This document shows positions 9,672-49,862 of a DNA stretch of 64,000 bases, piece after piece. The translations under genes and the position numbers were made by a program. Position 1 is the stretch's first letter. The number at the start of each line of letters is the position of its first letter. Under the pieces are notes generated by a model that had not been told where the DNA came from, did not search any database, and saw only the letters and a list, made by a program, of their open reading frames with translations. The DNA comes from Rhina ancylostomus (taxonomy: Eukaryota): the NCBI GenBank assembly GCA_030265395.1, contig JARFYF010000051.1:33846146-33910145 (forward strand), given 5' to 3'.

Positions 9672-9804
9672 GCAGACACAAGAGACTGCAGATGCTGGAT
9701 TCTGGAGCATCAAACAATCTGCTGGAGAAACTCAGTGGGTCGATCAGCATCTGTGTGGGGGAAAGGAATTGTCCACATTTCGGGTCGAAACTCTGCATCA
9801 GGAC
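9672..9804 (-). mobile_element. Penelope-derived element with a degenerate hammerhead motif
   Basis: Minus strand reads GTC-CTGATGC-AGAGTTTCGACCC-GAAA-TGTG-GAC, then the CACAGATGCTG..CTCCAGC..CAGCATCTGCAG tail. Confidence 0.65.
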
Positions 9805-10479
9805 CCTCTTCTCACTGCTCCCTCTCTGTGGATGCTCTACTCTCCGGCTCTTTAACCATATAGTTCAGCAATTTATTTAAAGGTTAATGCATAGAACACT
9901 AGTATGTGTTGTACAGAATTTTTTATTTGGAGAAATTCTTGTGCAGTGACATATTCACACAACTGATCCCCCCCCAACCCCCATTATGTTACAAGTCAGG
10001 TAAGCATGCTTAAATTGTGTAGAAAGAATTAAAGTAGAAGTTGAACGCAATCTGAGAGTTTCACAAGACTCACCACTTAGTTTGGCAAAGCAGTCGAAGG
10101 GAACAACATACTGCAGTGTGTTTGCACAGATCAGCAGGGCATAAGCCAGGAGGAGATTATCCCAAAACAGAACCATGCAGGGTATTGGCCAGAAGAAACA
10201 AGTGCAACAATTGCATCCTCAAGAGAGCTGGCCCTCATACTGGCTGTGTTAACAAGGGTACATTGAAGGAAACTTTGAAAGAAGAATGAGAACAGAAGCT
10301 TATAGAAACAAATACAAAACTGTAAACCCAAAGTGTAAATTCAGGGAAGCAGAACTGTAGAACAAGGATAAGTACACTGGAAAACTGCAAATCTAGGTTT
10401 CTGGAGTATTCTTCAGAAAGGAATTCTGATTGTTGTGGGTTAAAAAAACTAAACATTCAGCACCCTGCCCCAGGAGGAG

Positions 10480-10770
10480 AAGAATGTAGGAAAAATGGCA
10501 AACAAGTTTTGCACAGCACAGGCCCCACAAAACAGCCCTGAAGGATTGGTTAATCTGTTTTAGTGATGCTCGTTGAAGGATAGATATTGCCAAAATGCTG
10601 GACTAACTCACATGCTCATCAAATAGAAAATTTGGATAGTTTAGGTAGAGCCTTGATATAACTTGATCTGAAAGGTAGGATCTCAGCACTCCACACACTT
10701 ATTAGCTGAAGTTATAGATTCAGTCAGGGCAAGAGTTGGTGTCGAACCAACAATCTCCTGAGCCAAGTAA
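10480..10770 (-). mobile_element. Degenerate DeuSINE fragment
   Basis: AATGTAGGAAAAATGGC..GCACAGCAC..CCCACAAA..TAATCTGTTTTAGTGATG matches the Deu-domain-like sequence at about 8000. Confidence 0.55.
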
Positions 10771-11799
10771 ATGACATCACTCAGTAGCGCTTCTGATTTT
10801 GATGGTGAAGTTATAACAGAGATAGCAATTCTGCATACTCAGTTTAATTAACAGGATTGCCAGAAAACCAACCAATTCTAAGTTTCAAGCTACTGAGCCA
10901 TTAAATGAGCAAAAGTGAAAATGTTGTTCATTCTGCTGTTGCAGACAGAAAACAGCTCAGATAGTAAAACCCATTCAACTGGGTTGGGGTCAGCTGAACA
11001 AAGTATGAAACAGGACAATAAAACAAAGTGGTAAAGCAACAGGATGCAAATATAAAAGTGTTTGTAGAGTCCTTGCAAAAAAGCGGCTCAAAGNNNNNNN
11101 NNNNNNNNNNNNNNNNNNNNNNNNNNNNNNNNNNNNNNNNNNNNNNNNNNNNNNNNNNNNNNNNNNNNNNNNNNNNNNNNNNNNNNNNNNNNNGCTCAAA
11201 GAAGTGAATGAAGTCCAGAGTGTTGAGATGTCCTCTGGGTGTTGGATGTGCAGGGAATGCAAAACACCCAAGAGAGGCTTTACTCCCTTGCATTCAAAGT
11301 ATTTTTCTTGTGGGAGAGGAAGCATTCAAGACCTTAAGAATCACCAACTATTTTGGTAACACTGTAGCCTTGTAGCAACATTTCTACATGCTTCCCTGGA
11401 ATGGGTAGTTGGTTATAATCAAATGAACTGAAAGTAAACCGTGTACGTCGTTGTCACTCATCGTTATCACTTTACTCTGCAGGTACCAGGAATCCAGTAA
11501 TCCTCAATTCACCACGGTTACTCAACCAGCCTCAACTGTGTGCAGAGAGGCAATGAAATGTTCCCAGTTGACAATCGTTGCATTGTTGACAGGATCAGAT
11601 GTTTCTTGGAAAAGTCGCCACCAACTCATGTTCTTTCTAAGCTGTTGCAGACATTCAAGGTCGACAGCCACTGGTCTCCTGTATCCCTCACACCATTTCT
11701 GATCCCCCAGCAGGTTTTTCAGCAAGGACCTGTCAAAGTTGTTAAGCTCAGAGCAACTAGGGCTAGGACGAAGTCTCCTGGCCTCTTGAGTCTGCTTTG

Positions 11800-13450
11800 C
11801 CATTCGATAAGAACACAGGTATTCTGATTGCTGCTCCTTCCTACATATCTCTCATCCCTTTGCTTATTAAGAAACCATCTAAATCTGCCTTAAAAGTGAA
11901 GACTTTCTTCCTCAAAGGATGTTGCAAGCAGAAGTCCAAAAACTCACCACCTTCAAAAGAAAGAAAAATCCACATTTCTTAAGTGAATGATTTGTTCTTT
12001 CCAAACAGTGACCCACAGTTCTAAATTCCTCGAGAAGATGAAACATCATCTCTGCATCCATCCCATCAGGAGCTTGTGCATTTTAATCAACTCGTCTCTC
12101 ATTTTTCAAAACTCCAGAAGATAGAAACCTTTCCCGTACAAACCATTCCTCAAAACACTGCCCTCCCATTCCAGATATCAGTGGATGCATTTATATCTTT
12201 CCTTAAATAAGGAGATCAGTACTGTGCACAGTAGGGCACGTGCGGTCTCACTGTTGGGAGCACTCCTGTGTTCTGGGGGATTACATATAACACTTCACTT
12301 TTAGAATTTTACTGTATTAAAAGAAAGCTTCTCCATCTCTGCCCAATGCCTCTCCAACCTAAACCACAATCAATCCATCCCAACACATTTATAACCAGAA
12401 TTTGAACATTATAGGATAAAGAGTGGGGCCATAAGGGGGAAACTATTCTCAGCAAGTTCAATACCTGGTATGTACAATATCAGTAATAATTCATGAGCAT
12501 TGCAATAGTGTACGACCCTCAGGGATTATGTGAAAGCACTTAATCATCTAGTTAATGATAGTGCTGAAGTCAAGTGTCCACATGTTTTATACAATGTTCC
12601 ATCTTGTCTCCCCTTCAGATCAAGGAGACTCAAATAGGCAGAAGTCCAAGGCATCCCTGGAAGAGATGTCCTCTAGTGGTGCCATATGCAAAGAAACATG
12701 CACATTTTCAGTAATGCACAAGTGAGACCAGCTGCCACATAACCGCATACCCCAGTAAGAGGAAAAACAGTAGCAGCATGTGCTGGAGGAATATGCAAAG
12801 TTCATCATACACTGAAGCAGTACATGGCCATTTAGCTCCTTCTGCCCTTTCATTCATTCAATGAAACCTTGACTGATCTGGGACTTAACCTCATATTCCA
12901 TGGTCTCAAATCCCAAATTACCTTTGATAATTTTTTGTTAACAAATCTCAGCACTTAAAGCTGACAATTACCTTGCATCAGTTTGAAGAATTCCAAACTT
13001 CTACCACCCTCCAGATGTACACATTTCTTGACAAGGATCCTTCTAACTTTTTTTAGTCCTACCTTTTTCAATCAGAAGAAATAAGCTTCACCATGTCCAC
13101 CCTCTCAATTCCATAATATTTTCAGCTTCAATCTTTCCTTAGATACAAGCAATACAGTAAATAGTATTCTACATGTTGGCTTCATGTTTGAAAGTTTGCT
13201 GATAAATACATCCCATGCCTTTGTTCTGGTGGATCATAGGTAATGATATCTTAGCTTCACTTTTCTAATTTCACAGCAACTAGCAAAAAAAAACCTTCAC
13301 CATTTTCACCTGACACCTCTCTCCAGAAAATACAACCATAGGTTGTATAATCTCTCCTCATAATTTAACTCTCAAAGTTCAGGTGTCATTCCTATAAATC
13401 TACACTGCATTCCTTGCAAAGCCAGTGGATCCTCTGAAAAGGGAAGTCCA
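11800..13450 (-). mobile_element. Two degenerate CR1-type LINE 3' fragments (about 11800-12250 and 12820-13450)
   Basis: Reverse-complement CR1 features: GGCCATTTAGCTCC..CATTCAATGA..GACTGATCTG and AAATAAGGAGATCAGTACTGTGCACAGTA. Confidence 0.55.
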
Positions 13451-15487
13451 GAAGAGCATGCATTGCTACTTAATATTGCAGGGATTTACAACTATGCACC
13501 AGGAAAAAAATGCACTGTTATTTGTTACTGTAAATCATGTAAAAGCAAGTCAAATTTAGTGAACCCTGACCTTTTCCAATAGGTCCTTGTAGGTGTTTCT
13601 GCAGAGCTCAATACAATAGTTAGCAAGATCAACATCCACCACTATTGTTCTCATCTTCTAGATTGCATCTGCTTCCAACTGAAGCCCACAGGCTCGTCTG
13701 TCCCCAATAAAGCACATCACGCAAAATAGTTGTAGCATCTGAAATACTCTTCCAGCTTTTCAAATATCAGCTTTAACAATTCTAGTTCTGCCATGTACGT
13801 GGCTGCATAGAACAGGGATAAACAATTCAGGTCCTCTACCTATTCCACATAACAACTTAGCCAGTAAGTGTAATGATTCTTGATTTAAGTCAGTCGGGCC
13901 AGCAAGTTTTTGTAGTGTTCGACAATTTTATGGTCTTCTCTCTGGAATGGTTTAGCTCTAGTTTTAAGATGACTTTGTCTTGAATTCACCGAGCAGCTGA
14001 AAAGTCTCTCTCTATACACTAGCAATTACCTTGAGCCTAGAACCACAGTCTAGTTACACCACCTCTGCAATACACAAACTTTGATCTATTCTGGTGTTTT
14101 TTTACTGTACACCTTTCAAGGCTGACATGTCCCTGGATAAAGGCAGAGTTTCAGCAAAGGTTGCACAATGTGGCCTACACTAAAGTTGCATTTAATTTCC
14201 TTGAATGAAAGCATTAAAAACCTCTGCCTCAGAAACTGCACCTTTGCTCTGTACAGACTGAATGTCACCAACGTGATGCTTCAGCAAATGGCAAAGTAGG
14301 ACTTCAGTTATCCTCTAAATAGCGATGGTAAGTGACTGACTCCTGGGTCATACTGTGGGTGTCTAAAAAGTTACAATGAAAGGAAAATTGAAGACATTGG
14401 TGTGGTAACTGGTTAGCCAGACACTGTACTTACAGGGGGATCAACATCTCCCTCCAAATACTCAAATCAGCTACACCAAGTTGCTCTGACCCACCATTTA
14501 AACAGGCTTAATTTGGGATGTTCACTCTGTGTCCTCTGCTGCCGTGGGACACCCAGTCTTCCTGCATTCAAAAATGGTTAAAAAGAGCTGCCACACCCAT
14601 ATTATGGGGCTAAATATTTCTCCAAGCTAAAATATAGAGTTTGTTCCAATAGCTATTCCATTCATTTTGCTGTAACGTCATGACTGCAAAGCTCATTAAG
14701 CAAACCACTTCAACCTTTCCTTAGTTCGTCTCTCCTTAATATTGCAAATATGGAATAACACTCCTGTGTAACATACAAGGTTGTGGTATCGTTTCTGTTG
14801 CTACTTTTCTGTGATTTAAGAAAGTTAAAGGCAGGTGATTTTAATCTTTCCTGAATATATTTCCATCAGAAGACGATACACGCTTTCATTAATTTTCTAA
14901 AATATTAAATTTAATATACGCACACCTCAGCCACAAGCTAATGAACAAACATTCCACAATGTATCATTTTTATATTAGATCCTACATATTTATAGACTTC
15001 AACACAATTATTACCCTCAGGGGCTTGGAGTTGGCAGGAAGGCCCCCAAAGGCTGTAGAAACGTTAATGAATTTTCCTATTAATGTGCAGAGCCGGCTTC
15101 TTGGCAAGTACTGGTATCTCCATCACTATTTAAACATGCTTTACTATTAATTTGTTTAACCCTATGAATGCTATTGGTTATTCAGAACTTGAAGAATCAG
15201 AAGCTGACAAATTTTCTATTAATGCTTTATGGTGTTAACTCCAGCATATTAAGTTGTTCGAAGAATGCTCACTGCATTTTCTTGGGGTGGGGGAACATTA
15301 TACAGTCAAGCCAGACTTTGTGGTGATTAATGGGCAGCATTTTCTATAGTCAAAAATCTAATATAAAGCAGATGGGTTTCAGAAAAATGATTTGAATTTA
15401 CAGTGAGTACCAGATGTTACATTCTTTTAACTAATTGGGTTTCCGTGTGCACTGCTGGCAATGAGGGCTTTTGATCAAAAACTTTAC

Positions 15488-15613
15488 CTCTGATTGCAGA
15501 GCTGACAAGCAAAGCAGTCCAGGTGATAAACATTGTCCTTGGCCCTCATGACCATCTCAAAGGCAGGAATCAGCTTACTGCATGCGGCACAATTCCCCGT
15601 CACACCAAACAAC
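15488..15613 (-). CDS. LMO3: LMO3 coding exon 2 (most of LIM domain 2)
   Basis: Not in the ORF track; read manually as (R)LFGVTGNCAACSKLIPAFEMVMRAKDNVYHLDCFACQLCNQ(R). Acceptor TTTGCAG|G at 15615-15614, donor CAGAG|GTAAAG at 15487. 126 nt, phase 2-2. Confidence 0.98.
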
Positions 15614-15949
15614 CTGCAAAACAAGGAAGACAAACAAATTCAGCACTAGTCACAGAATCATGCACCTCTCGCTGGCTAGACATTTATTTACCTTCCCACA
15701 TCTCGGCTGGGAAAGTCTTTGTGCTCCCTGTTCAGCCTTAGCCCAAGGCCTGGTGAACCCTAATTCAAGCTTTCAATTCATGCCTGGGTGATGGAAGAGC
15801 TGAGGGATCTCAAATTATGCAGAAGAGGCCAAAGTAATTAGGGTTCATATTCAGAGAAGTGAACGTCAAGAGACATGACTATACTGCAGACGTCGGCACA
15901 AATAAAAGCAGCAACTGGTTCCATTAACAGAAGGGCTAGTAATGGAGTT

Positions 15950-16600
15950 CAGAAGGATGAGGGTAGAATCTCATTGAAACCTACCAAATATTGAGGGGAT
16001 GTTTTCCAGTAGTAGGAGTCCAGGATCTGAGGGCACAGCCTCAGAATAAGAGGGACTTCCCTTTAGAACTGAGATGAGGAGGAATTTCTTCAGTCAGAGG
16101 GTGGCGAGTCTGTAGAATTCATTGCCACAGAGGGCTGTGGAGGCCAAGTCATTGAGTGTATTTAACACAGAGATTGATAACTTCTTGCTTGGTAAGGGGG
16201 TTCAGGGAGAAGGCAGGAGAATGGGGTTGAGAAATAAAAGTCAGCAATGATTGAATGGCGGAGCAGAATCAATGGGCCAAATGGCCTAATTCTGCTACTA
16301 TATCTTATGGCAATCAGAGATCACATTTAACAAAAAATAATTTGCATGAGGACCAGAGGGAAGATGGAGGTACTTTTTTTTTGAGAAAGGTAAACATACA
16401 AGGATGATAATTGGTAACATTCTGGGTAAAAAGTGCTAGAACTGGACTGCATTGCATCTTTTTAAAAGAGAATTTGATAAATATTTCAAGAAATAATTTG
16501 CAGGGCAATAGGGAAAGAGCAACAACAGGCAAATGATTAGGTAGCTCTTCCACTAAACAGATGCAATGGGCCAAATGGTTCCCTTTCAGAGCTGAGTGAT
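15950..16600 (+). mobile_element. Two tandem CR1-type LINE 3' fragments
   Basis: GGGCACAGCCTCAGAATAAGAGG..TTTAGAACTGAGATGAGGAGGAATTTCTTCAGTCAGAGGGTGG..ATGGGCCAAATGGCCTAATTCTGCT, with a second more decayed copy at 16330-16600. Confidence 0.8.
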
Positions 16601-17117
16601 CATGAAAGAGATTTCACTGCAACGCAAAACAGGTTTTCAAAAAATCCAAGTTCACAGAGGGGAAGCTGTGAATTCTTTATTAGGGAAGAGGGGCAAATCA
16701 GAGTAGAAAGTGGCGCAATAAGGATCTCAATGCAAAACAGCACAAATCACAGGCCTTAAAAATGTGAACTCAAATGGGATCAACACTGAGAGTTNNNNNN
16801 NNNNNNNNNNNNNNNNNNNNNNNNAGGGTCCTACTCTCCCTCTGGAAGACGAATAATAGTCCTTACTTTCAATGTGGCAACAGGAAATATGAGAGCTCTT
16901 ATTGGACTATCTTAAAACACCATTACCTCGATAATAGGGTGCACTGGGGAAATAAACATCCTGATTTGAAACACTCACCAAACTAAAGATGTATATTTTT
17001 TCTTGGTAATTTTTGCTTTAGACAATGTATTTCTCTGGCGTCAGGAAGGGGAGGAAGTGAGTATTAACGCTGCAAAATGAGGCACTGAATTCAGACACCC
17101 AGAGTGAGTCATCAAGT

Positions 17118-17215
17118 TGTCCTGATGTAGGGTCTCAACCTGAAACATCGTCTTACACCATTTGCATCCACAGATGCTGCTTGACCTGCTGAGTTCTCTT
17201 GGCCTTTGTGTCAGT
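17118..17215 (+). mobile_element. Penelope-derived element with a degenerate hammerhead motif
   Basis: GTC-CTGATGT-AGGGTCTCAACCT-GAAA-CATC followed by CCACAGATGCTGCTTGACCTGCTGAGTT. Confidence 0.6.
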
Positions 17216-17427: not shown

Positions 17428-17615
17428 CAAAACCAGAATGCTGGAAATACTCAGCAGTTTGGGCAACATCTATGGAGAGACAAATAGTTAATGTTTCGGG
17501 TTAATAATCAACCTAAAACTTTAACTCTGTTTTCCTCTCCACAAACGCTGCCTGACCTGCGGAGTATTTCCAGCATTTTGGCTTTAATTCTGACTTAAGT
17601 CATCTGCAGTTTTTT
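17428..17615. mobile_element. Palindromic Penelope-derived element
   Basis: AATGCTGGAAATACTCAGCAG..CATCTATGGAGAG is inverted relative to CTCTCCACAAACGCTGCCTGACCTGCGGAGTATTTCCAGCATT. Confidence 0.65.
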
Positions 17616-17679
17616 TTGTTTTCTACACCAGATTCATTTCCAATCAAGCCACCATATCCCCATGGCTCCCACTCCATGC

Positions 17680-17845
17680 TGTGGAGTCATGAAGTATGGA
17701 AACAGGCCCTTTGGCCCACCACATCGAACCCCATGTTTTCAGAGGCAGAACATGCAAACTCCACACAGACAGGACCCAAGGTCAGGATTGAAGCAGTGTC
17801 TCTGGAGCTGTTGAGGCAGCAGTCCCAACTACTGCACCACCAGCT
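17680..17845 (-). mobile_element. Internally deleted HE1/V-SINE-like element
   Basis: AACATGCAAACTCCACACAGACAG..GGAGCTGTTGAGGCAGC head joined to the GGAAACAGGCCCTTTGGCCCA tail. Confidence 0.7.
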
Positions 17846-18391: not shown

Positions 18392-18725
18392 GGGCAGCAC
18401 AGTGACAGGGCTGGTAGAGTTGCTAACTCACAGTGTCACCATCCTGGGTTTAATCATGACTTCTGGGACAGTGTGGCATTTGCTTCCTCTGTGACTGAGG
18501 GCATTTCTCCTAGGTGCTCTGATTTTCTCCCACATTCCAGGGATGTGAAGTTGGTAGGTTAATTTGCCACTGTAATTTGTCCCCGGCGAACATGCGAGTG
18601 GTAGATTCTGGAGGGAATTAACGGGAATGTGCAGAGAGTCAAATGGAATTGCACAGAATGATTACAATGGTCAGAATGGACTTGATGGGCCAAAGGGCCT
18701 CTTTCTGTGCTGTAATGACTATGAC
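18392..18725 (+). mobile_element. HE1/V-SINE-like element
   Basis: GGCAGCACAGTG..GGTAGAGTTGCT head, CTCCCACATTCC..GGTTAATT..CTGTAATTTGTCCC body, GGGCCAAAGGGCCT tail. Confidence 0.75.
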
Positions 18726-20184: not shown

Positions 20185-20285
20185 TTTACACAGGGTCTCA
20201 ACCCAAAACATCAACAATTCCTTTCCCTCCACAGATGCTGTTCCACCTGCTGAGTTCCTCCAGCAGTTTGTTTTTTTGCTCCACC
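20185..20285 (+). mobile_element. Penelope-derived element (single arm)
   Basis: AGGGTCTCAACCCAAAACATCAAC..CTCCACAGATGCTG..CTGCTGAGTTCCTCCAGC. Confidence 0.55.
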
Positions 20286-20749
20286 TTCACTGGCAGGAGA
20301 AGTAAGCCAACATCAACAAGGTCTCCCAGGCCAACATCTCTGACTTTGAGGCTCTAATTACACCCAGTGGCCCATAATGTTCATATGCCTGACAAGACTT
20401 CCCTCCCCTCCCCCCCACCCACCCCCAAACAAAAAGGCACTCTTCTCAAAGTTGTCATGTCAAAGGATCGCCAAAAGGAACTAGAAAATACTTCAAGAAT
20501 GTGCACAAAGCCATGTTCAAAATACGTAACATTCTCAGCAAACAATGGGAATCCCTGGGCTGTGACCTACCAGAATAGAAGAGGAACACTCAGGTTGCCA
20601 ATGGGAACCCAAGGTCTCTTCATTGGGAGCATACAAAACCCAGCAGAAACAGCACACCACTTATGCTACCCACCCCAGAAGGCACCTGCTTCCCCACTGG
20701 CAGCAGAGTCTGCAGATCCCACATTAACCTCTACCATCACAGAATCCAC

Positions 20750-21470
20750 AGTGGAAACAAGTGCTCTTTGGACAAGCTGCCTTACAAGGAAGGGTTGGAC
20801 AGGATAGACTTGCACCTTTGGAGTTTAGGAGTGAGATGGTGCTTGATTAAAACACATGACAATGGTGGATGTTTCCTCTTGTGGGAAACAGGAGAACTGG
20901 GGATCACTGGAGAAAGGGCTGCCTATGTAAAATGGGGAAAGAGTTGAAATTTTCTCCGAGGGCCGTGAATCCTTTAAACTCTTTTCCTTAAAAGAGCAGT
21001 GAAATTGGTGTTTGAATATTTTTTGTAAAAAAGACAAAGGTAGGTAGATTCTTGATAAGATAGGGGGTGAAAGAATACAGCAGATAGACCAGAATGGCAC
21101 GGTAGTGTAGTGGTTATCGTAATTCTATTACAGCACCAGTGACCTGGGTTCGATTCCGGCTGCTGTTTGCAAGGAGTTTGTACGTNNNNNNNNNNNNNNN
21201 NNNGGTTTCCTCTGGGTGCTCCGGTTTCCTCCCACATTCCAAAGACGTACGGGTTAGGAAGTTGTGGGCGTGCTACGTTGACGCTGGAGGCATGGCGACA
21301 CCTGCGGGCTGCCTCCAGAACACTCTATGCAAAAGATGCATTTCACTGTGTGTTTTGATGTACATGTGACTAATGAAGAAATCTTATGTTAATGTGGAGT
21401 TGAAGTTACAATCAGAACAGTGATTCTCTTATTAAATGGCAAGAGCAGGAGGACTGAGTGATGTACTCCT
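20750..21470 (+). mobile_element. CR1 3' fragment interrupted by a V-SINE-like element (21095-21390) with a Rex1/L2-like tail
   Basis: CR1 RT C-terminal sequence at 20775-21090. SINE GGCACGGTAGTGTAGTGG..GGTTCGATTCC..GGTTTCCTCCCACATTCCAAAGACGTAC. The CR1 tail resumes at about 21390 (TGGAGTTGAAG..TTAAATGGC..GAGCAGG). Confidence 0.7.
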
Positions 21471-22584: not shown

Positions 22585-22714
22585 AAAACAAAGAGAGCTG
22601 CAGATGCTGGATTCTGAAACAAAACCAGAAATGCTTGAAGAATTCAGCCAGTCAGGCAGCATCTATGAAAAGAGAAACCAGTCAACGTTTCGAGTCAGTG
22701 ACCCTTCCTCAGGA
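22585..22714 (-). ncRNA. Penelope-derived element with an intact minimal type I hammerhead core (22680-22714)
   Basis: Minus strand reads TC-CTGAGGA-A-GGGTC(ACT)GACTC-GAAA-CG-TT-GACT: CUGANGA box, stem II, GAAA box, palindromic stem III (AACGTT) and an NUH site. Confidence 0.6.
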
Positions 22715-25144
22715 TATTTCCTCACCATACTTGTACTGATCAATGGAGCATCATCGTCCTTTAAGCTCTGCCTATACTCTCCTTACTTAATATCTATATG
22801 CAAATTTAGTGCTGTGGTCACTTGCTTGCAAGTGAAGAGCTTCAAGAACCTTTGCCCATTTTGAACTCCCTGACCCAAAGTAGTTGAGATCAGTGACTGA
22901 GCTCAAACTGGGTACTCATCAGGAATCGATCCTTGGACTTTTCCAGGATTGCATAAACTTGTTATTCAACAGAAAAACTGTGCATTTGAGGAAACCCAAA
23001 GCTTACACTAAATTATTACAACAAAGGTTAAAAAGACAATTTGCTAAAGTACTTGCAATGTATTTAAATATTCCTTAGAAGATTTCATACCAGACTAATT
23101 AAACAGTATTCCTTTTGGGAAAATGTTTTAATTTGATCCAACTCAAAGCACAATTCATATTGGGGACAGACCGGCAACAATGGAAGTTTTTTTTAAAAAT
23201 AACATGACTTTTCTTTAATCTATTCCAAAGTGGAACAAGATTTGGCCATTTTATATATATAGAAACTATGTGTTATAATGGAATGAGTTTTACAAAAGTG
23301 ATGCAAATCTTTAATGGTGCTATAAACAGCAGCAATGGAACATCCTGTTCACTATCTGTGAATCGACCTGTTCTTCTGAGGTTTACAGCTATGGTAACTA
23401 CCATTACTTTAGTTTAGAGTACAATATTAAATGACCCCTCATTTATGCACCTGTTCTTGTCTGGAGAAGTTAGTCGTTTTGCAAAATCTTCCTATTCATT
23501 GATACGTATTTCTGTTAATTTGGAACAGTGAAGATACATTGAACTTATGTTGACTCTGTGACCAAGTTCCCTCATACGTTTTTCCAGCCATCTCCTACAC
23601 TGCCTTAGGGAGTGGTGGTTGCAGAATAGAACTGCACTGATGCACCTCAAGGGTGCAATATCATGAAGCCCAAAATCCAAGCTTCAGCCCTGTAAACATG
23701 CTGAAATTTATTCTACAATTCCACCCACAACACATTTTAACATTAGTGCATTTGAAATGCTTCTGTCCAATTACTGGCTCTTGGTCATTTCAATTCCATT
23801 AAATCATCAATCAAACTTTATAGAAAAAGAGAGAATAATATATAGTCAGAAGATACCATTAGGAGAAAGCTATTTTCATTTTGCTTGAAGTTGAAACTGC
23901 ACATTGGAAATATTGCCAAAGTGCATTTCGTTCTAGACCAGACAATGATTGTATTTCATCTGCAAACAAGATGGGAGTCTAAAAATTTGGCATGGCTGTG
24001 CTTGAAGGTGGTTCTGCAGGGATATCAACCATCCTAGCTATATGACCAATGACAACGACACCTTAACATTTTACGGGAACTTTGCAGGACCATTCAACAA
24101 ACAATTGATCGGCAGTTCACCAAGGAACACTGCATCATTGGACACAGCTTTGTGCATACCATGAAACAGCATAACACAGACAAGAAGGATCATCCAAACT
24201 GATACCTTCAGAGCCAATTACTTATAATCGTCGTACCTAAACAGGAACAGTCATAATGCAAATCGGCAGACCAAACACAAGTGACCAGCACCATGATACC
24301 TAGATCTAGGGAGCACGCAGAGCTGAGGGAATGTGGAGGTTTTATTCTTGTGGTGACAATGGTTCAAACATCTGTGTCACATAGGACAGATATGCCCTCT
24401 TTTCAAGTACTATTCACGTTAGCATCGTGTTAGATGCAGGAATAAACCTGGGAGGTGGCCTTAAAGAATATTCCAGAAAAAATTGAGAATTTAGTATGTT
24501 GCAGAACACTTGCAGAGAAGGGGCAGCTGGAGACCACACGAGAAGGTATTGAAGATAGGGATATGGGTCTAAGCGAAGCTGTTTGCTCATAACCAGCAAG
24601 CTGAGAACATGGGCAACATTAACGTGCATTGAATACGTTTGCAACCATGAAACTAATTGCTCTATTGCTCTTGTTTTCTATTACATATATCGTAAACAAA
24701 AATGAGTTTATGCTGTAGCGTTAGATACTCAATGACCAAGATGCAAGGGTCTTAACATAAAACAACTTTACAGCTCCCAATTGAGAGCACCAATTTTGCA
24801 TTTGCCGTATGATTTCATGCCTGTTCACTTTAATGGATAGAATGCCATAAAGCAAGATAATATTGTGAATTCCCGGCATGTCAGTTGATGTGTGATCAGT
24901 GTGCTGGTGCAGTGATGAATATTTACCTCAGTCAGATATGTGCAGTCTTATGGGAGTTTTAATGTGCTTTTAACCATATGTTGTGCGGTGAATTTCATGC
25001 AGCTCAGATACTGTTCCCTTTGCTACATGCCTCCTTTGATAAAGGATAAGCAATAGCAAAGGGTTGCACTGGCCCATGGACGACTTGCAACATAAAGAGG
25101 TTTTCTGCTAGATTCAATGTGGCTCATGAGGAGATAAATATCAT

Positions 25145-38864: not shown

Positions 38865-39130
38865 GTCAGAATCATACAGCACAGAATCAGGCCCTTTGGC
38901 CCAACTGCTCCATGCAGACCAAGATTCCCATCTAAGTTGGACCCAGTCGCCTGTGTTTGGCCCATATCCTTCTAAACCTTTCCTATCCACGTACCTGTCC
39001 AAGTACCTTTTAAATGTTGTTAATATTTATCTTACATTTTTGATTACATTCTTACTCCACGAGAGTTGATTTAATCCAACCCCCTCATTATCCTAAGGGC
39101 TTCCATTAGAACACCCTCGGCTATTAGCTT
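38865..39130 (-). mobile_element. CR1-type LINE 3' end
   Basis: ATACAGCACAGAATCAGGCCCTTTGGCCCAAC..TTTGGCCCATATCCTTCTAAACCTTTCCTATCCACGTACCTGTCC. Confidence 0.8.
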
Positions 39131-39274
39131 CTCCTGACGAAGTCCAACACTCCCATCTCCCCCAAATTTGGTGCTTTCCAATCATATCAATAAACCTAAT
39201 TTGATGGTACAATGTATCTGTTAGTACATTAGATCTACTGACTTACATTGATCGGTACTGTGGGATAAATAGAA

Positions 39275-39480
39275 GACAAAAGAGACTGCAGATGCTGGAA
39301 TCTGGAACAAAAACAGAATGTTGGAAGAACTCACTGGGTCAAGCAGCATCTTTGGAGGCAAAAAGGTATAAGTCAACATTTTTGGTCCTGATGCTGGGTC
39401 TTGACCTGAAACGTCGACTTACACCTTTTGCCTCCGCAATGCTGCTTGACCCAGAGCTCTTCCAATGTTCTGTGTTTTGT
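39275..39480. mobile_element. Palindromic Penelope-derived element with a hammerhead-like motif in the loop
   Basis: Arms of about 70 bp (39307-39381 and 39409-39480). Centre GGTC-CTGATGC-T-GGGTC(TT)GACCT-GAAA-CG-TC-GACT. Confidence 0.75.
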
Positions 39481-40979
39481 GGAATAAATATTTCTGCATC
39501 AGAAATCCATTATGGATAAATTCTGCTTGATGTATATCAATATCTTTACCTATACACACATTTTGGTGCCAATAGCAGTTGTTGGCTGAGATTTTGTATG
39601 CAGAGATCAGAGACCACAACTGGGTAAATAATTTGTCAAATGGCACCAATTGTAATTTTTATTCACTAAAATTAATGACAGATAACGCAGGCCCAAAACC
39701 ACATTTCAAACTGCAGCAGGAGTGAAGACTTCGAAAATGTCTATGTTCCTTGCATTTCGATTGAAATATCAGACACCACCTCTTTCTTCAATTTATATAC
39801 TCCAACATATTCTTGTGATTGTATCTGGTTTTAATTTAAAAATGTAGGTTTCTTTGCATTTAACTTGAAACAAGCAGAATTCAAGCAGTGTAGTATCATT
39901 CAAGAAGTCTCAGATGGTTGCAAAAGATCTCACACTATGATTTGAACAAAAAATTGCATGGAAATTCACCTCAACCAACACTTAAGTACAATNNNNNNNN
40001 NNNNNNNNNNNNNNNNNNNNNNNNNNNNNNNNNNNNNNNNNNNNNNNNNNNNNNNNNNNNNNNNNNNNNNNNNNNNNNNNNNNNNNNNNNNNNNNNNNNN
40101 NNNNNNNNNNNNNNNNNNNNNNNNNNNNNNNNNNNNNNNNNNNNNNNNNNNNNNNNNNNNNNNNNNNNNNNNNNNNNNNNNNNNNNNNNNNNNNNNNNNN
40201 NNNNNNNNNNNNNNNNNNNNNNNNNNNNNNNNNNNNNNNNNNNNNNNNNNNNNNNNNNNNNNNNNNNNNNNNNNNNNNNNNNNNNNNNNNNNNNNNNNNN
40301 NNNNNNNNNNNNNNNNNNNNNNNNNNNNNNNNNNNNNNNNNNNNNNNNNNNNNNNNNNNNNNNNNNNNNNNNNNNNNNNNNNNNNNNNNNNNNNNNNNNN
40401 NNNNNNNNNNNNNNNNNNNNNNNNNNNNNNNNNNNNNNNNNNNNNNNNNNNNNNNNNNNNNNNNNNNNNNNNNNNNNNNNNNNNNNNNNNNNNNNNNNNN
40501 NNNNNNNNNNNNNNNNNNNNNNNNNNNNNNNNNNNNNNNNNNNNNNNTATCTGAAGCAGCAGATGCTTGAGACGTTGAAACAAGACCTGACAGACAAGAA
40601 TACAACACTGTACCACCATTTGCCCTTAAATCTCTGGAGTGAGATTTGGATTTACAATCTTCTGACTCAGGAGATAAATGCCCCAACCAAATCAAAGCTG
40701 TAGAGGAGGTTTCATATTAGTGCTGTAAAAATTGGAGATATCAGATATGATGAAAATTATCAACCTGTGATTTAGATTGAGCAAATAAAATGAAAAGTAA
40801 AGATTATCCACAGGATGGCAAGATCAGTTACCGCTCATTCCTAACCACCCTTCTGTTCAAGGATAAGTGTCGCTACTGTGGATCTGGAGTCTAACCAAAC
40901 AAGCAAGCATGGCAATAAACCCAGTAGGCTCAATCTGACAGCAGCAGGTCTCTGTGAAATGATAACTGAGACTTGTGAA

Positions 40980-41150: not shown

Positions 41151-42934
41151 GCAAGCAAATGAGATGAGATATGAAAATATAAAATTACTGACACCGCTTC
41201 TAAAAACATCAGAGTGTATTTAATTAATTGAATTTAAATTCCCCAGCTGCAGTCATGGGATTTGAATGCATCTCTTGATCAATCTGTATCTCTGGATAAC
41301 TAATCCAGCAATTTAATCACACTGCCACCATGTCACTAAACTAAATGGTTTACATTCATTTCATCATGTGGCTTTATTTCCTGGACTATTAGCATAAATC
41401 TCCATTGTTCCTTTGCTCTGAAGACAGCAGACCCACAGCACAGTCCCTTTGCAATCTTCTTGGAAGAGATAGACTTCAGGCAACATCTGTCACACATGAA
41501 AATCTTTTGCCCCACTCTCAGTTTAGGAGTCACTAAAACACTGGCATTTTTTTTGTTTTATAGATAAAACGGAGGGAACTAATTTCTTCACAAATGCTTT
41601 ATAATGAATATTTGGTAAAAGTTCATTGAGAAATGAGAAATCATAGGTTTGGTCTGGGACCCATTACGTGTGCAAAATACTTCTGCATGTTGGAAAACTA
41701 ATCTTGTTATCCAGTCCCATTGGGACTGGTTATGCCACAAGGATACTTGAAGAAATTGCATGTGTTCTTATATGCCCATAGATAGATGAGCATTACTGTC
41801 AACTGGTATCACTGAATAGTAGAAAAATCTCAATGTCTTATTCGAGAAGCATGCAGAAACAGTATAGAGAGCAAAGAGTAAACAAACAATTGCAATTTAT
41901 ATATTTGAATTGAATTACTTAACCTTCAGCATGGAAAACCTGCAATGAATTAGTCTAAAACACAACTCGTATACAAACTGATATTGTTCCAACACCATTG
42001 CATCTATGTCCAGTGTTTGCTAGCAGATTACACTACATCTGTATAATAATTTCCTACCATTGCCATTCTTAGTTGGCATCATGACCGACTCTGTGGTAGG
42101 CAACCCAAACTGTGCCCTGACATTCTACAGGCCGGCTTGTGTTGAATTCTTGACCACATCAGATCTGCCCTAGAGCTTCTGCAGTGGAAACTTTTTTATT
42201 TAAAGAGAGAGCAACTTTAAAAATAGTTTGTAATCTCAAGACAATGTGGCAATGTGGCAACAACTTTGGGACAATTGAAAATTAGGCAAAAATCTACTGA
42301 CCTCCATCTTAAAGGGGGTCATAAAGTACATGTAGGAAACATGGGTAAATGGAGCCCAGCACAGATGACCCACAATCAAATGGTTGTTCAAAGGGTTGAA
42401 TGTCAACTCCACTAATTTGTCATATTTGTCAAATAAGTCCAACCAGATCATTTTGGCAGATTCAAAAATCATTCAAGAGTTCAATGTGATCAAATCAATT
42501 CAGACATTATACTTTAAAATTTGTGTTAACAGAAGCTGGTATTAAAATGAATTTAAGGATGAAAATAGAAGAAAATCTGGAAAACAAATAGAAAGTCTGA
42601 AGAAGTCTCCTCAATTTACGTACAAGTGTATTCTTAACAATGATCATTGCCTAACTGGAAAAGGCTTGGGCAGGTGAATGAGTTTGTACAATTGGCCAAA
42701 ATATGTTAACAGTAAAATGTGCAAGACAAAAGAGATTATCAATTGAAATTGATGTTATGCAAGGATTAAACAGGAAAAATTTGGCATTTTATACAGATAC
42801 TTCAAGTGTATTTTTGTATCTGTCACTGAGAATAATTTCTCCTCATCTTTAAAATACATCTAAAAATAATTGCAAAACCAGTGCATCACCACCTATATCC
42901 AGGACTCTTCCCAATTAACACGATTTGTTAATTT

Positions 42935-42937
<3 letters not shown>

Positions 42938-42998
<61 letters not shown>
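42938..42998. repeat. (TG)n microsatellite
   Basis: About 30 perfect units. Confidence 0.97.
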
Positions 42999-43000
<2 letters not shown>

Positions 43001-46000
43001 TGAAAGAGAAGGGAATGGAAAAAAAATTGATCCAGTTGTTGCCTACTTTTCTTTATTCCAACAAATACATTCCTTAAATTTTCCCTAAATACTTCTTCCT
43101 AAAAATTTTGATCAATGCACCAAAGATTTTAAACTCAGCCCACACCCCCCAGCCACTATATTCCAGGTACCATCCCAGTAAATGTGTCACTTTGTAGAAG
43201 GTGTGGTTGATTTGAAATTAGGTGATTTTGGCACTGGTAATTATAAAGCCTCACAGAATAGGTTCTCAGCAACAGCAGCTCTGGGGCAGATTGGGATAAT
43301 CTACCCACTGCAGGCTTATTGGCTACACATTAACATTAAAACTCAGAATTTACAGAGCAAGATGTGAAACAATGTGGAATAATAACTAGATGTACTGAAA
43401 CCTGCTGTAAGGGGTAAAAAGGTGGAGAACTCCTGTAGTGGAATAATGGGAGTGCTTTAAAAAGGCAGTCAATGATTCAGAAGGACACAGTAACCAAAAA
43501 AATGATTGAAAGTAAAATACATTTTTTCATTTATTTGTGCAGCACATGTAATATTTTTGTTCCATGTTTGCTTTTGGAAGGAGTCAACCTATGAATTTAC
43601 ACATTCTCCACATCAGTACAAAGCCACTTCAGCTTCCCATTAACTTGATTCGACAAAGCTGTGCATTAATGCTAAAACCAACTGAGGCAACATGGTAAGG
43701 AATTTATATACATAGCACCTTTTGCTAACTGAGGATGTTCCATTTCACAGCTGAAGTGGAATGAGATTCACTCCTCCAGAGCAGGCCGATCTTGAATTTA
43801 GTTTGCATTTACACAACTGTCTGCAACTGCGTTGTGAAACCACTTCAGGTGATGATATAGTTGTAGAGTAAAGACAGCTTGAGTAAATCTGTTTATAAAA
43901 GACTTTTCTCACAAATTGGTTTTCTTCTAGACAGAAGAAGTTTCTGCCACATTCCCACCGAGAACTTTAAAAATGTTAACCACAATATTGAAATTCTTCC
44001 TTAGTGTACATTACAAGACTATCCGGGGTGTAGAAAAACCTCTCCCAACTCTTTTGCGATTGTACTGCAATTCATTCACAGTTCTCCCCTCCACCCCACC
44101 CCCATATTAATGACCCCTGAAGGAGCCCTCAGGGATTGAGTAACAGGGCCGTTACACAAGGCAGCTCACTAATTGAGAAGTTGATCAGGGGTTGAGAAAT
44201 CCTGNNNNNNNNNNNNNNNNNNNNNNNNNAACCATGACTAGATTGACATCCCCAAATCACTGCCTAGAGGCCACTCTAAGTCAGAAACAGCAGTGCTTTT
44301 CACACCTGATAGGCCCCTACTCCATCTACATCAAGTCACATTAAAAAAGGAACATTTTAGAGCACAGGCCAAGCTTTCGGAGTAATTTGTTTGGCAGTCA
44401 AATTACTCACATGGACCCATTTGCTGTAACAGTCATGTAAGGAAACAAAAAAAAGGGCCATTTACAGAGAGTTATTTCAATTTGAATTGGAACACTGACT
44501 TTAATTTAAAGAAGAAGAAGTTAACAGAAGAACATAGTTTGTGCATAGATGTGCAAATCCCATTTTCTCAAGTTTTGTCTGCAGCATTTTAATAGCTTGG
44601 TGGTTATTGGGAGATTGTACCCACCCTTTTAAAATGAACTAAACTTGCCTATTGTTTGATTGCTCGTCTTTTATAGATCAGTTGAGATTAGAAAATCACA
44701 GGAATGATTAAAATGCCCTGTCTTGGCCACAACCAACAAACTATGGAATAAAACCAACTGAATAAACCACCCCCATCCCAAATAAAATTCAGATCTTGAT
44801 TTAACTTCACATCAGAGTGGACACCACACTATGCCCTGAACCTGGTTGTTATTGGGGTGTATGGAACCAATACGCAGTATTCAATGATGCCTGCTAAATA
44901 AAATTGCTACATCAATGTAAATGTCATTTCTTATTGGTTTCCCTGTTTTTGTTTCTTGCTTTTGAAAGACTGAGTATAAAGTCTCAAGGATTTATTTCTC
45001 AAAAATGAGATTTGAGAGTTCAAAACATCCCCTTGCCAAGATTCCTTCCACAACAGTTTGCAAATTAGAAGCCCTTAGTCGCGCAAGGGGAAAATGGATG
45101 CTGAAACAACAGTTTAAGACTGAAGGGCGCTTAAGGCTTACGAGCCATTTTGCAAATGTTTTGAATAAGGCTAGAATTTGAAAGCTTGTGTTCAAGCATG
45201 TGAAATTTTATACAAACCTTTGGTGACAAAATCTTGGGATTCCATGGTCAATTTGGAGAGACTTAAGTTTATCCTTTGACTTCAACCAAAATGTTAAAAA
45301 CTAATTTTAAAATGGTGATGTGACCAAAAATCCACTGTTTATCTTGTTCTGTACAAGAGCTTGGATGTCAATATGGGCCACTTTATTAAGATGCCAGAAA
45401 AGCAAAATTTAAATGCATCTTGTGGACTTGAAAATGTCAGGAATGCATGACTTCTGGGCTCCATTTGGAGCAGCTTGAGGAAAAGAATCATTTGTATATG
45501 CACTTTAACAGCATGGTCCAAAAAGAAAGGCTGGCAGCATGATTACTGACATTTTCCTGTGAGCAGAACACTAGTATTTTCCTGTGACACTTAAAGTGGT
45601 TTAATATTACAAGTGAAGCTACTGCAAATGGTGATTAAAGCCACTTTATTCCACTCACTCTTGTTCCACCATACCATCAAAATCTCTAAGAGGTACTTCG
45701 AACATTTGAGGCATTCATAGACGGACTCATTTTTGTGAAGATTGCGAGGGTTTATTCCTTTCTTTGCCTTGAAGCATTCTCATCATGTGTCAAAAATCCA
45801 GGACAAGAGTAGTTTATAATGCGCATATGTAATTTGAATTCAATACCCCAAGAGTCTCCATCAATACCCAAAGTTTAATGCTGGCTTTGTCTGTCTGGTC
45901 AATGACTGGGTGTGAAATAAAGGTCGCTTGTTGATCGCNNNNNNNNNNCTCTCAGATTCATTGCTGGACTCTGAGCCTTTGCTGTTTTTGAAAAACGTCA

Positions 46001-46234
46001 AGTCTTTAAGAAATTATGTGGAAAGTTGCATTGTGAAGTGTGGTTGTCAAGGAATGTGAACTTGCATTATAATGAATTAAAAAGGAAGCAGGCACAGGTG
46101 AAAGGTGTAGTCCACTCTGCAGTCTGAATATACCCCAAAAAGCAACTCATTGTGATTTAGAAACAGCCATTATATTACAGATGGCGGAAAAATTTTTGAA
46201 AAAATTCTTGTGGATGGCATAAAACAGCATTTAG

Positions 46235-46320
46235 AAGCATGGGTTTATCAAAGACTGTCACAGATTTGTTCAGGGAAGATCATGCCTGGCTAACAATTGA
46301 ATCTGAGGTAACAGCATCAT
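46235..46320 (+). mobile_element. CR1 reverse transcriptase remnant
   Basis: CACAGATTTGTTCAGGGAAGATCATGCCTGGCTAAC reads HRFVQGRSCLAN, resembling the CR1 motif HGFVKGRSCLTN. A KFADD remnant also lies at about 9040-9060. Confidence 0.55.
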
Positions 46321-47699
46321 CTTACTACCCTCTCTGATTGTCTAGTGCCTTGCTAAAATTCATGCAGGACATAATCGAAGTCTCACATTTATCATGCAGG
46401 ACCCCACAGAAACCCAGAAAGAGGCAAGTAGTCAAAGAGTTGTACGTGACAGGGCTCCACAGGCTTTGGCACTAGGAGCATTTGTTTTGCTGTGATGTAG
46501 ACAAAGAATTGGACATAGTCAGTTTTGGCATTTTAGGCAAACNNNNNNNNNNNNNNNNNNNNNNNNNNNNNNNNNNNNNNNNNNNNNNNNNNNNNNNNNN
46601 NNNNNNNNNNNNNNNNNNNNNNNNNNNNNNNNNNNNNNNNNNNNNNNNNNNNNNNNNNNNNNNNNNNNNNNNNNNNNNNNNNNNNNNNNNNNNNNNNNNN
46701 NNNNNNNNNNNNNNNNNNNNNNNNNNNNNNNNNNNNNNNNNNNNNNNNNNNNNNNNNNNNNNNNNNNNNNNNNNNNNNNNNNNNNNNNNNNNNNNNNNNN
46801 NNNNNNNNNNNNNNNNNNNNNNNNNNNNNNNNNNNNNNNNNNNNNNNNNNNNNNNNNNNNNNNNNNNNNNNNNNNNNNNNNNNNNNNNNNNNNNNNNNNN
46901 NNNNNNNNNNNNNNNNNNNNNNNNNNNNNNNNNNNNNNNNNNNNNNNNNNNNNNNNNNNNNNNNNNNNNNNNNNNNNNNNNNNNNNNNNNNNNNNNNNNN
47001 NNNNNNNNNNNNNNNNNNNNNNNNNNNNNNNNNNNNNNNNNNNNNNNNNNNNNNNNNNNNNNNNNNNNNNNNNNNNNNNNNNNNNNNNNNNNNNNNNNNN
47101 NNNNNNNNNNNNNNNNNNNNNNNNNNNNNNNNNNNNNNNNNNNNNNNNNNNNNTAGTTTAATTATTGGTAGTGTTAGGGTGATTATTCAATGAAATGAAA
47201 GAATTATAGCAGGTATATGTAGAACAAAACGATGTGGATTACTATAGAATACAAATGTTTCTGATTGAGAAATTGGTGTATGGACAGTTCTTGGGAATAG
47301 AACCCTTCAGTAACCCAGGGACCACCTGTGTTATATTATGAAAGACCCAAACAGGGTGAACAGTAATGATCTCTTTTCCTTAGTAGGAGAGAACAATAAG
47401 CAGAGGCAATAGATGTGTTCATTGGTTGGATGAGTATGAAACCCCCCCCCCCCACTCCCACTGTGTGGTTGGAGTCTGGAACACACTGCCTGAAAGAGTG
47501 GTGGAAGCAGAAACCTCACTACATTTCACACTCCCCACTTGATCACCTGAAGACCCTCAAGCTAAAGGTCATTTCTGGTCCATGAGCTAGGAAGCAGGAT
47601 TAAACCCAAATCCATTACTTGCTGGCATGGAAACTAAAGGCCTCCTTCAGTGCTGTAAATTTTTATGATGATCAAGAACGTTGGCCCAACATTGCCACA

Positions 47700-47915
47700 C
47701 CCCAACTACATATCATACTTCCTTGAGAATAACTTTTTCCCCTTCCCATCACCTCTTTATACTGACTCACTCCCCTTTATCTTTCAGTCCAGATGAAGGG
47801 TCTCAAGCAGAAATGTTGGCTGTCCATTTACCGCCACAGATGCTGCCCGATTGAGTTCCTCCAGCCGTTTGTTTGTTGCTCCAGATTTCCAGCATCTGCA
47901 GTCCTGTGTCGTCTC
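47700..47915 (+). mobile_element. Penelope-like 3' end with a near-intact hammerhead motif
   Basis: Pyrimidine-rich run, then CAGTC-CAGATGA-AGGGTCTCAAGCA-GAAA-TGTT-GGCTG and the full tail to CCAGCATCTGCAG. Confidence 0.65.
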
Positions 47916-48194
47916 CTCTTTTTCTAAACACTTCTACAAAGAGCAACCTGTTGAATCTGTGGGGCAGCTAACTACACTACAGAGAGTACCCTTTCAGAGC
48001 ATCAATGGTCACACATCCTGTCAGAGTCCCTGACTGTTGCCCTCAGTGGTCATCTGCCACACAACCAAATTTCTGATCAATAATTTTTCAGATCCATGAG
48101 CTTCAACTTTTGCCAATTAACGACATTATCTGCAATTTCAGGAAGCCCATTATAGGTAGGCTGCTACCTGCTAGTATAGTCAAAAGCAAACCAA

Positions 48195-48395
48195 AAGAGG
48201 CAAATTCAGGAAATTTGAAATTAAAACAAAATTCTAGAAACAGAGGTCAGGCAACATCCATGGAGAGAGAAACAGTTAATGCTTCAGGTCAATGAGCTGC
48301 CATCAGAAGTAACCATTCTAAAAGTAAGGTCATCAACTTGACATCATCTCTCCACAGATGCTGCCTGGCCACTTAATGTTTCCAGCTCTTCTCCC
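48195..48395. mobile_element. Palindromic Penelope-derived element
   Basis: GGTCAGGCAACATCCATGGAGAG is inverted relative to TCTCCACAGATGCTGCCTGGCC. Confidence 0.55.
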
Positions 48396-48719
48396 TTTGG
48401 CCATTATCACATCTTCAAAGAGCTCAATAGTTGTCAGACACGATCTACCTTTTAAAAATCCATACTAGGAAAGGGATTCCAATTTCCCTGCTAACAAATT
48501 TACTGGAAAAAGTGGAGTTGTACGGTACATTCAATTTTCCATTCCACAAGAAAGAACACTAGTGGAAAGAAATCAGGGTGTGTGCAATAATCTCATCTAT
48601 CCCAGAGGATCTGTCTCCAATAGTGCAACCATTTTCTTTGTCACATTAATGTTGTCAGCTCACTCCTGATACAATACCAGTTTCTCTGGAATGTTTTGCA
48701 GGCTTTTCTAAAAGTGAGG

Positions 48720-49575
48720 TTAGAGCAGGTAGTGCTGCTGTCTCACAGCTCCAATGACCAGTTTCGATCCTGATTGCCACTGCCGTGTGAAGATCAAGGT
48801 GCACCAGTTTCTTCCCACTTCCCAAAGATGTGCTGCTCAGTCAGTTAATTGTCACTTTAAATTGCTCCTAGTGTAGGTGGGTGGTTGGCAAATCAGGGGA
48901 AAGTTGAGGGGCATGGGAGAGAATGGAGGAATGGGATTGATGGGAATACTCAGAGCTGTCAGACTCTATGGACTTAATGGTCCATGTCATAAGGAAATAT
49001 AAATAATGATGCAAAAGGAATTACTCAACAATTCCTCATCTTCTACTTACAATCAGTGCTCACCTTAGGTGGGCCACTTCCTTCCTTTCCTTACAGGTTG
49101 CTTAATGACGTGCACACAGTCTCAGTAGGTCAAAGGGTCTGCTTCTGACTTGTTCCTCATCCCCCTTTGTTTTATTTCTTCCCCTCACCTGGAGATGAGG
49201 AGTTCTGTTTGCACTACACTATTTTGGTTGCCCTTGAACACTTTTGAAGAGCGAGATCCTATCCTGTTTTAGGAGGTACAAGCTCATAATGACGCAGGAA
49301 GCAACTATTTGGCCATTGTTATTTCTCTTTCCCCTTGCAAGTTGTTCTCTCCAACACATCCATCAACTCCTCTAAGTCTTTTTGCCGTTAACCTCCACAA
49401 CTGGGTGATCATACAGTGGTCAATTAACCTGCCCAGCCCATCCATAGAATCTGGGAGGAAAACAGGGCACCGTTGGGAAAAAGTCACAGGGAGAACATGC
49501 AAACTCCACACAGATAGCACCTCTGGTCAGGATTGGACCAGAGTCACTGGAGTTGCAAGATTGCAGTACCGTTTG
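48720..49575. mobile_element. Inverted pair of V-SINE-like elements (48720-48995 +; 49310-49575 -)
   Basis: GCTGCTGTCTCACAGCTCCAATGACC..CCCACTTCCCAAAG on the plus strand, and CACAGGGAGAACATGCAAACTCCACACAG..CACTGGAGTTG as reverse complement. Confidence 0.7.
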
Positions 49576-49749
49576 TTCAGCATCACAAAATTTCTTTGCA
49601 AAACCTCCTTCTGATCTTGCCATTTTCTCCATTAAGAACCTTGACCCAAAGATTGTAAGGCAAAATTAACGTCTGGAACTCTTAGGTCATTACATTGTTC
49701 AGAGTGAAAATCTGAAAGCCAAATACACCGCTCTCATAACAATGCTTTC

Positions 49750-49862
49750 CCAGCTCTGATGATAGGTCATGACCTGAAATGTTAAGTTTCCTTCACAGAT
49801 GCTGCTGAACCTGCTGAGTATATCTGGCATTTTGTTTGATTTCAGATCTGAAGCATTTGCAT
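49750..49862 (+). ncRNA. Penelope-derived element with intact hammerhead boxes (49756-49783)
   Basis: CTGATGA-T-AGGTCATGACCT-GAAA-TGTT, then CACAGATGCTGCTGAACCTGCTGAG. Confidence 0.5.

Follow-up and report, generated by a model that had tools for sequence, protein, structure and literature searches.

The introns of a LIM-only gene of Rhina ancylostomus, which we take to be LMO3, carry many copies of a short element with a hammerhead ribozyme motif. These copies were studied in a stretch of 64,000 nucleotides (contig JARFYF010000051.1, positions 33,846,146 to 33,910,145 of the forward strand), hereafter referred to as the window. It is highly probable that they are old, 5'-truncated 3' ends (the ribozyme and roughly 100-140 nt more) from several subfamilies of Neptune-type Penelope-like elements (PLEs), likely inserted by reverse transcriptase (RT) and endonuclease, likely decaying neutrally, and predicted not to cleave. 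The observation is of a known kind, namely decayed Neptune-type PLE ends with a minimal type I hammerhead ribozyme (min-HHR). For the LMO gene there is no sign of a role, and the copies are typical repeat debris.

The copies were counted with a profile built from unbiased genomic copies, which was then run on the window, on shuffled sequence, and on an unbiased sample of six intronic blocks (985,529 non-N bases) chosen with the intention of avoiding circularity. The window yielded 22 fragments at 17 loci, and the shuffled sequence none. The original prediction had listed eight intervals and spoken of at least 10 copies; the element is indeed present in all eight, each showing a CTGANGA-like box, stem II, GAAA and the C/T-G-T-C/T stretch, so that the claim of many copies stands while the number was an undercount. 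The density of one fragment per 2.8 kb in the window compares with one per 3.9 kb in the sample (252 fragments; range among blocks 2.5-10.4), which is ordinary, and nothing sets the introns of this gene apart. One block (G000:C63:100630001-100830000, L158-L177) had 18 matches in 187 kb, mostly of the S4 subfamily, at about one third of the density of the other five. Extrapolation from the six blocks to the genome, taken as 2.2 Gb, gives on the order of 10^5 fragments. The high copy number claimed earlier is borne out by the sample and by thousands of exact 19-mers genome-wide (5,468 of the canonical core alone); the 34-nt canonical motif has 67 exact genome matches and its reversed control has none.

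The ribozyme consensus was derived after excluding, from 274 matches, the 144 that do not cover the ribozyme, which left 130 arms (119 from the sample, 11 from the window). The majority sequence of the 119 unbiased copies has a stem I of CAGTC/GACTG, the box CTGATGA, a single additional A, a stem II of 4 bp that begins with G10.1-C11.1, GAAA, and a loopless palindromic ACGT in place of helix III. At each of the 11 core positions, including CUGANGA, GAAA and U16.1-H17, the most frequent base is the canonical one, and the extra nucleotide after A9 is present, as in the min-HHR definition. By sequence, the family consensus reads as a textbook min-HHR with a palindromic helix III, as had been proposed, with CUGANGA and GAAA conserved at the majority level. 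C11.1 is the ancestral state and decays as a CpG together with G12; likewise, the palindromic positions 15.2-16.2 read CG in 19, TG in 44 and CA in 44 of the 130 arms, the pattern of an ancestral CG with CpG decay. In stem I the pair 2.1:1.1 covaries between C-G and U-A (57 and 33 of the 130 arms, p=4.6e-7), a single subfamily event that ranks 70th of 2775 column pairs, and the remaining stem pairs show no covariation of note. An Rfam scan gave four matches at E<=5, all under the gathering scores and no hammerhead among them; we infer that the hammerhead was missed because the motif lacks helix III.

These consensus features are those listed for metazoan PLE min-HHRs by Cervera and De la Pena 2014 (PMC4209133), who reported such ribozymes in the pseudo-long terminal repeats (pLTRs) of Xena, Poseidon and Neptune elements of fishes, coelacanth and Xenopus; sharks and rays are not among the host names given in the passages concerned. 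The family described here differs in its 4-bp stem II, compared with 7-8 bp in Schistosoma, and in having two abundant subfamilies with the core changes U4A or A9C. Literature searches for Penelope hammerheads in sharks brought up, among the papers listed and judged by title and opening of the abstract, none on this family.

The Penelope origin, also part of the original prediction, is supported by coding remnants that lie upstream of ribozyme copies elsewhere in the genome. There, RT motifs of the PLE type (RVT_1, E=4e-4, under the curated cut-off) precede a C-x4-C-x2-C linker, found at several loci, which is followed by a remnant of a GIY-YIG endonuclease (Pfam E=0.002, likewise under the curated cut-off). 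In 18 loci selected for having both parts, the ribozyme lies 290-580 nt downstream of the RT/GIY-YIG match, and a first look genome-wide returned 33,943 candidates for the endonuclease end. The Neptune clade is defined by an RT, a CX2-5CxxC linker and, at the C-terminus, a GIY-YIG domain (Craig et al. 2021, PMC8557442). Besides this order, the copies share with the Neptune elements described there heavy 5' truncation, an adjoining inverted 5'-truncated copy, a 30-40-bp tail on one end, and a hammerhead in the pLTR; they differ in that no intact open reading frame (ORF) or tandem arrangement was recovered. The linker points to Neptune, or to Nematis, which also bears a linker, rather than to Poseidon, a clade call made from motifs and not from an RT tree. 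The closest approach to a PLE tandem arrangement is a pair of RT-region copies, L261 and L287 (G000:C52:23055642-23059803), which stand in partial tandem about 900 nt apart.

Several observations weigh against the origin proposed here. No ORF sequence is joined to any copy in the window, which leaves room for trans-mobilisation of short RNAs. Neither a full-length element nor a tandem pLTR-ORF-pLTR unit was found; a 5' walk over 30 loci at the RT N-terminus met no shared direct pLTR upstream and did not reach the ORF start. No intact ORF was found, and two protein-database searches for a full-length parent were empty (weak negatives). The Neptune label depends on motifs identified by eye and on what passages of PMC8557442 state, with Pfam matches under the cut-off. 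Finally, core columns are somewhat less diverged than tail columns (124 of 1196 changed, 141-165 expected, P about 0.075), so some selection may have acted. The rate of change in core columns is similar on both strands of the host genes (sense 9.2%, antisense 10.8%), which suggests selection in the source elements rather than in the insertions.

The same coding remnants bear on whether the short copies are a family of their own, as the original prediction held in calling them non-autonomous. In sample and window together, an ORF remnant lies upstream of 11 of the 130 arms (4 canonical or U4A, 3 A9C and 4 S4, two of the last sharing one remnant), so ORF-linked members occur in the canonical, U4A, A9C and S4 subfamilies; with the 18 selected loci, this leaves that claim unsupported. 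The positions of the 5' ends are continuous, running from within the tail to past -700. Since ORF-linked members exist and 5' ends are continuous, the short copies are best understood as truncation products of coding elements, and no separate non-autonomous family is needed.

The alternative would be a separate family of about 140 nt, resembling short interspersed elements (SINEs) or retrozymes, self-transcribed and mobilised in trans by a Neptune protein. It draws on the shape of the 5' ends. Of 166 copies (13 of 179 were excluded for containing N), 29.5% begin at -6 to -1 from C3, compared with 9.3% under a simulation of uniform truncation, although the peak is broad. A pyrimidine tract and CAG lie directly before the core (-30 to -1 from C3; in the window at 47750-47790) and are kept in all subfamilies, and two thirds of the ribozyme-covering copies (80 of the 122 scored, after setting aside 4 arms whose starts were doubtful and 4 preceded by N) begin without the upstream pyrimidine tract. 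A recent preprint (bioRxiv 10.64898/2026.07.22.740005) also derives non-LTR retrozymes, which like these copies are pLTR-derived type I hammerhead sequences without an ORF in vertebrate genomes, from pLTRs, including in its one sampled chondrichthyan. Those retrozymes, however, are described as tandem arrays with a hammerhead per unit, whereas the copies here are dispersed singles or inverted pairs: among the 252 sample matches only 7 neighbours within 60 nt are in tandem, and the window has none. Moreover, three of four subfamily clusters, both core variants included, have members continuous with the 3' untranslated region (UTR) and ORF remnants, some members of the fourth (N7A, 16 arms) share 3' UTR sequence, and the short copies share no extra 5' sequence in addition to the continuum of their ends. 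We regard a separate family as unlikely.

The pile-up of 5' ends at the ribozyme edge could reflect an initiator, a 3' splice site or simply an RT stall at the pyrimidine-CAG. The D. virilis Penelope element offers a precedent for reading the pyrimidine-CAG as a 3' splice site (PMC4209133). A spliced-on exon common to short copies was not seen, base composition being at background by -7, and an antisense bias that a cryptic acceptor at this site might cause was not seen in the sampled introns. Self-cleavage as the source of the 5' ends was rejected, with 4 of 181 starts at +25 to +30 and 48 at -10 to 0.

How the truncated ends were inserted can be read from their arrangement. Among neighbouring sample fragments no more than 60 nt apart, 38 pairs stand head-to-head and 2 tail-to-tail, and about 30% of fragments lie in head-to-head pairs. 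In 33 of 43 pairs the tail, i.e. the last 30 nt or so, is confined to one arm, and a target-site duplication (TSD) of at least 9 nt surrounds the unit in 10 of 34 cases, compared with 2.7% for mismatched-flank controls. Long copies with an RT can be capped by inverted arms as well (4 of 30 loci). The two arms of a hairpin are more similar to each other (0.75, 36 pairs) than random copies are (0.66), yet mostly no more so than the best unrelated copies. No one-strand A-to-G scar was obvious in the difference counts of hairpin arms, which were judged by eye without a test.

This head-to-head, one-sided-tail, TSD anatomy is the published insertion pattern of PLEs. Penelope insertions of Adineta vaga are described with head-to-head inverted pLTRs, a one-sided tail and a single TSD of 8-10 bp around the unit (PMC3846280). 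Compared with those, most units here are pLTR ends alone, 120-280 nt long, and their density is very high. For the Anolis Poseidon element PAc, two internal RT start sites were reported, with both strands nicked and extended (Frangieh et al. 2024, PMC11167929). Two such sites would explain the one-sided tail. In the PAc work no RNA ended at the hammerhead cleavage site, and the 5' ends of the present copies show no excess there.

By analogy with this in vitro work, the protein would nick both target strands and prime cDNA synthesis at two internal positions close to the tail. The element's own RT and endonuclease likely made the insertions, and most cDNAs would stop early, often at the 5' edge of the ribozyme, leaving solo stumps or hairpins. 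If the ribozyme mattered at all, it may have done so in the RNA of the source element, as a dimer-dependent or protein-assisted motif, and not in the inserted copies, which now likely decay neutrally in host pre-mRNA predicted to stay uncut.

The inverted pairs also invite comparison with a miniature inverted-repeat transposable element (MITE), a DNA element whose long terminal inverted repeats would resemble a hammerhead only incidentally. Palindromic loci do occur, five in the window and 38 in the sample, some with TSDs. The arms, however, end at a fixed 3' position, are ragged at their inner 5' ends and bear a tail on one side only; the majority of copies have a single arm; and the continuity with a PLE ORF (RT and GIY-YIG remnants), including the inverted arms on RT-bearing copies, contradicts such an origin, which we consider extremely improbable.

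The PLE subfamilies differ in their catalytic core. Among the 119 sampled copies, 34 carry U4A and 29 carry A9C, and each change co-occurs with diagnostic changes elsewhere in the copy; because these travel with both, U4A and A9C are inherited subfamily marks. Exact 19-mers number 3,724 for U4A and 1,757 for A9C genome-wide. As a control for the latter, A9G and A9U together give 307; for U4A the comparison is limited to sample counts, in which position 4 is A in 34 copies, C in 3 and G in none, with no genome-wide control. A9C could alternatively be an insertion between G8 and A9. In passages of Perreault et al. 2011, U4C and A6C are named and U4A and A9C are not, and a literature search for hammerheads with either change found no description, although Lunse et al. 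2017 or the supplements of PMC4209133 may hold one.

It is a mild surprise that two very abundant lineages spread while carrying altered catalytic letters. Either they still cut, or catalysis is dispensable. In PAc, catalytic mutants (engineered C3G and G8C) were without effect on insertion in vitro (PMC11167929), and the spread of the U4A and A9C subfamilies agrees with this result. PAc belongs to another clade, and its variants were engineered, whereas those described here are natural and amplified. The two natural subfamilies are an in vivo counterpart to the in vitro finding that insertion needs no ribozyme catalysis.

A more speculative proposal is that the hammerhead fold serves as an RNA dimerisation and stop signal and not as a cutter: two template RNAs would pair via the palindromic helix III and stem I, each would be copied by RT from one of the two nicks, and both cDNAs would halt at the 5' edge and join head to head. 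If true, this would jointly explain the hairpins, the pile-up at stem I and not at the cleavage site, and the thousands of copies of ORF-bearing U4A and A9C subfamilies that keep the palindrome and stem I. We hold it to be doubtful, though not far-fetched; a transcription start or a 3' splice site at the pyrimidine-CAG is just as possible an explanation of the pile-up. For Penelope biology the family has modest value: its high copy number gives statistics on how these poorly understood elements terminate their cDNAs.

The inserted copies are heavily decayed, with 15-21% divergence from the subfamily consensus, mostly at CpG sites. The original prediction had regarded most copies as dead through core mutations. 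Loss is indeed widespread, as the core is intact in only 18 of 119 sampled copies and core and stems together in 4, but U4A and A9C are inherited and not decay. In the window, 2 of the 11 ribozyme-covering arms have a full core (22680, sense, and 49756, antisense) and none keeps the core with stems I and II. With gene strand in the six blocks inferred from laminin-G exon matches, no strand bias was found in introns, the sense/antisense counts being 121/131 for all matches and 53/66 for ribozyme-covering ones; intact cores, for which a strand bias had been suggested as a check, gave 11/7, a comparison of low power.

It had further been proposed that copies in one pre-mRNA could complement each other. 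In this view the intronic copies are, or were co-opted as, working ribozymes cutting LMO pre-mRNA by mutual pairing. In its favour, the copy at 22680, the only sense copy in the window with a full core, keeps all 11 core positions and the GUU site, and with some 3% of sampled copies (the 4 of 119) retaining core and stems, intact sense copies exist in other introns. The 22680 copy, however, has a stem I of 2 bp, does not fold as a hammerhead in the energy model, and as the only intact sense enzyme half would have about 4 bp with which to grip a partner; in the other sense copies the core is defective. In the predicted fold, the one other sense arm with a usable cleavage strand, the left arm at 39273, lies buried within its hairpin. 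Even for a perfect genomic copy the model favours an inactive duplex (-34.9 kcal/mol) over the double hammerhead (-19.3 kcal/mol). Published min-HHRs are described as having no activity as monomers and little as dimers (PMC4209133), or as needing the protein of the element (PMC11167929). The absence of strand bias also speaks against co-option, which we judge very improbable. Complementation in cis is implausible because both core and stems survive in no window arm and the LMO pre-mRNA contains only 3 of the 8 listed copies in the sense orientation, the other 5 being antisense. The window copies are thus likely, on these structural predictions, to be inactive debris.

The loci lie mostly (15 of 17) within a 44-kb intron, the remaining two being at 9674-9805, in the following intron, and at 2925-3107, past the last coding exon. 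The listed sense (minus-strand) copies are three solo pLTR ends. That at 9674-9805 (listed at 9771-9804) has a tail, belongs to the A9C subfamily and has G at position 17; 22587-22715 (listed at 22680-22714) is the copy with the intact core and GUU site; and 28284-28421 (listed at 28382-28416) belongs to the U4A subfamily, with U16.1C. On the plus strand, and antisense, are a solo pLTR end at 17118-17212 (listed at 17118-17152), of the A9C subfamily but now A9U and with stem I and the helix III palindrome decayed; a pLTR end with about 50 nt of pyrimidine-rich 3' UTR at 47737-47911 (listed at 47784-47822), of the U4A subfamily and with stem II at 2/4; and a solo pLTR end of S4 type at 49745-49861 (listed at 49756-49783), with an intact core and a stem I of 1 bp. 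Contigs of other organisms (records 18, 15 and 30) span copy 47784 or 49756 plus flank, suggesting that these two may be old shared insertions.

Five loci are head-to-head hairpins. Those at 2925-3107, beyond the last coding exon, and 48199-48390 are of S4 type with decayed cores, the former with two truncated arms; both arms at 17429-17619 begin within stem II and lack the CUGANGA box. The hairpin at 27569-27764 has a 14-nt TSD with one mismatch, and its right arm (listed at 27677-27708) carries G8U and A9C. At 39273-39512, where a long duplex is predicted, the right arm (listed at 39384-39419) is antisense and A9C, with intact stems. For each of the five, a sense-strand duplex of -71 to -118 kcal/mol is predicted, which makes them possible double-stranded RNA or editing substrates. 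The remaining loci are fragments: two begin within the ribozyme on the plus strand (20191-20286, solo, and 31939-32018), one within stem II on the minus strand (30039-30151), two on the minus strand are tail-only (25519-25601, without ribozyme, and 27939-28029), and one on the plus strand is weak and decayed (26791-26868).

The host gene has its first coding exon at 59621-59826, the second at 15488-15613 and the last at 6425-6530, all on the minus strand. Its product is a LIM-only protein whose best solved relatives are LMO2 and LMO4. Upstream of the first coding exon, GC content rises to 48% at 60001-62000, which probably marks the gene's promoter or 5' exons. A second dispersed repeat family, unrelated to the PLE ends and as common as these, comprises repeat families D6, D9, D11-D13, D15, D17 and D20 and occurs at 17681-17810, 18504-18714, 21206-21264, 25153-25805, 29064-29220, 34159-34330, 36177-36647, 38866-38921, 48789-48899 and 49433-49555; it resembles the SINE or long interspersed element (LINE)-tail repeats of elasmobranchs. 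At 30826-31065, a 100-nt stretch of N is flanked by two 69-nt copies that are 99% identical, possibly an assembly overlap.

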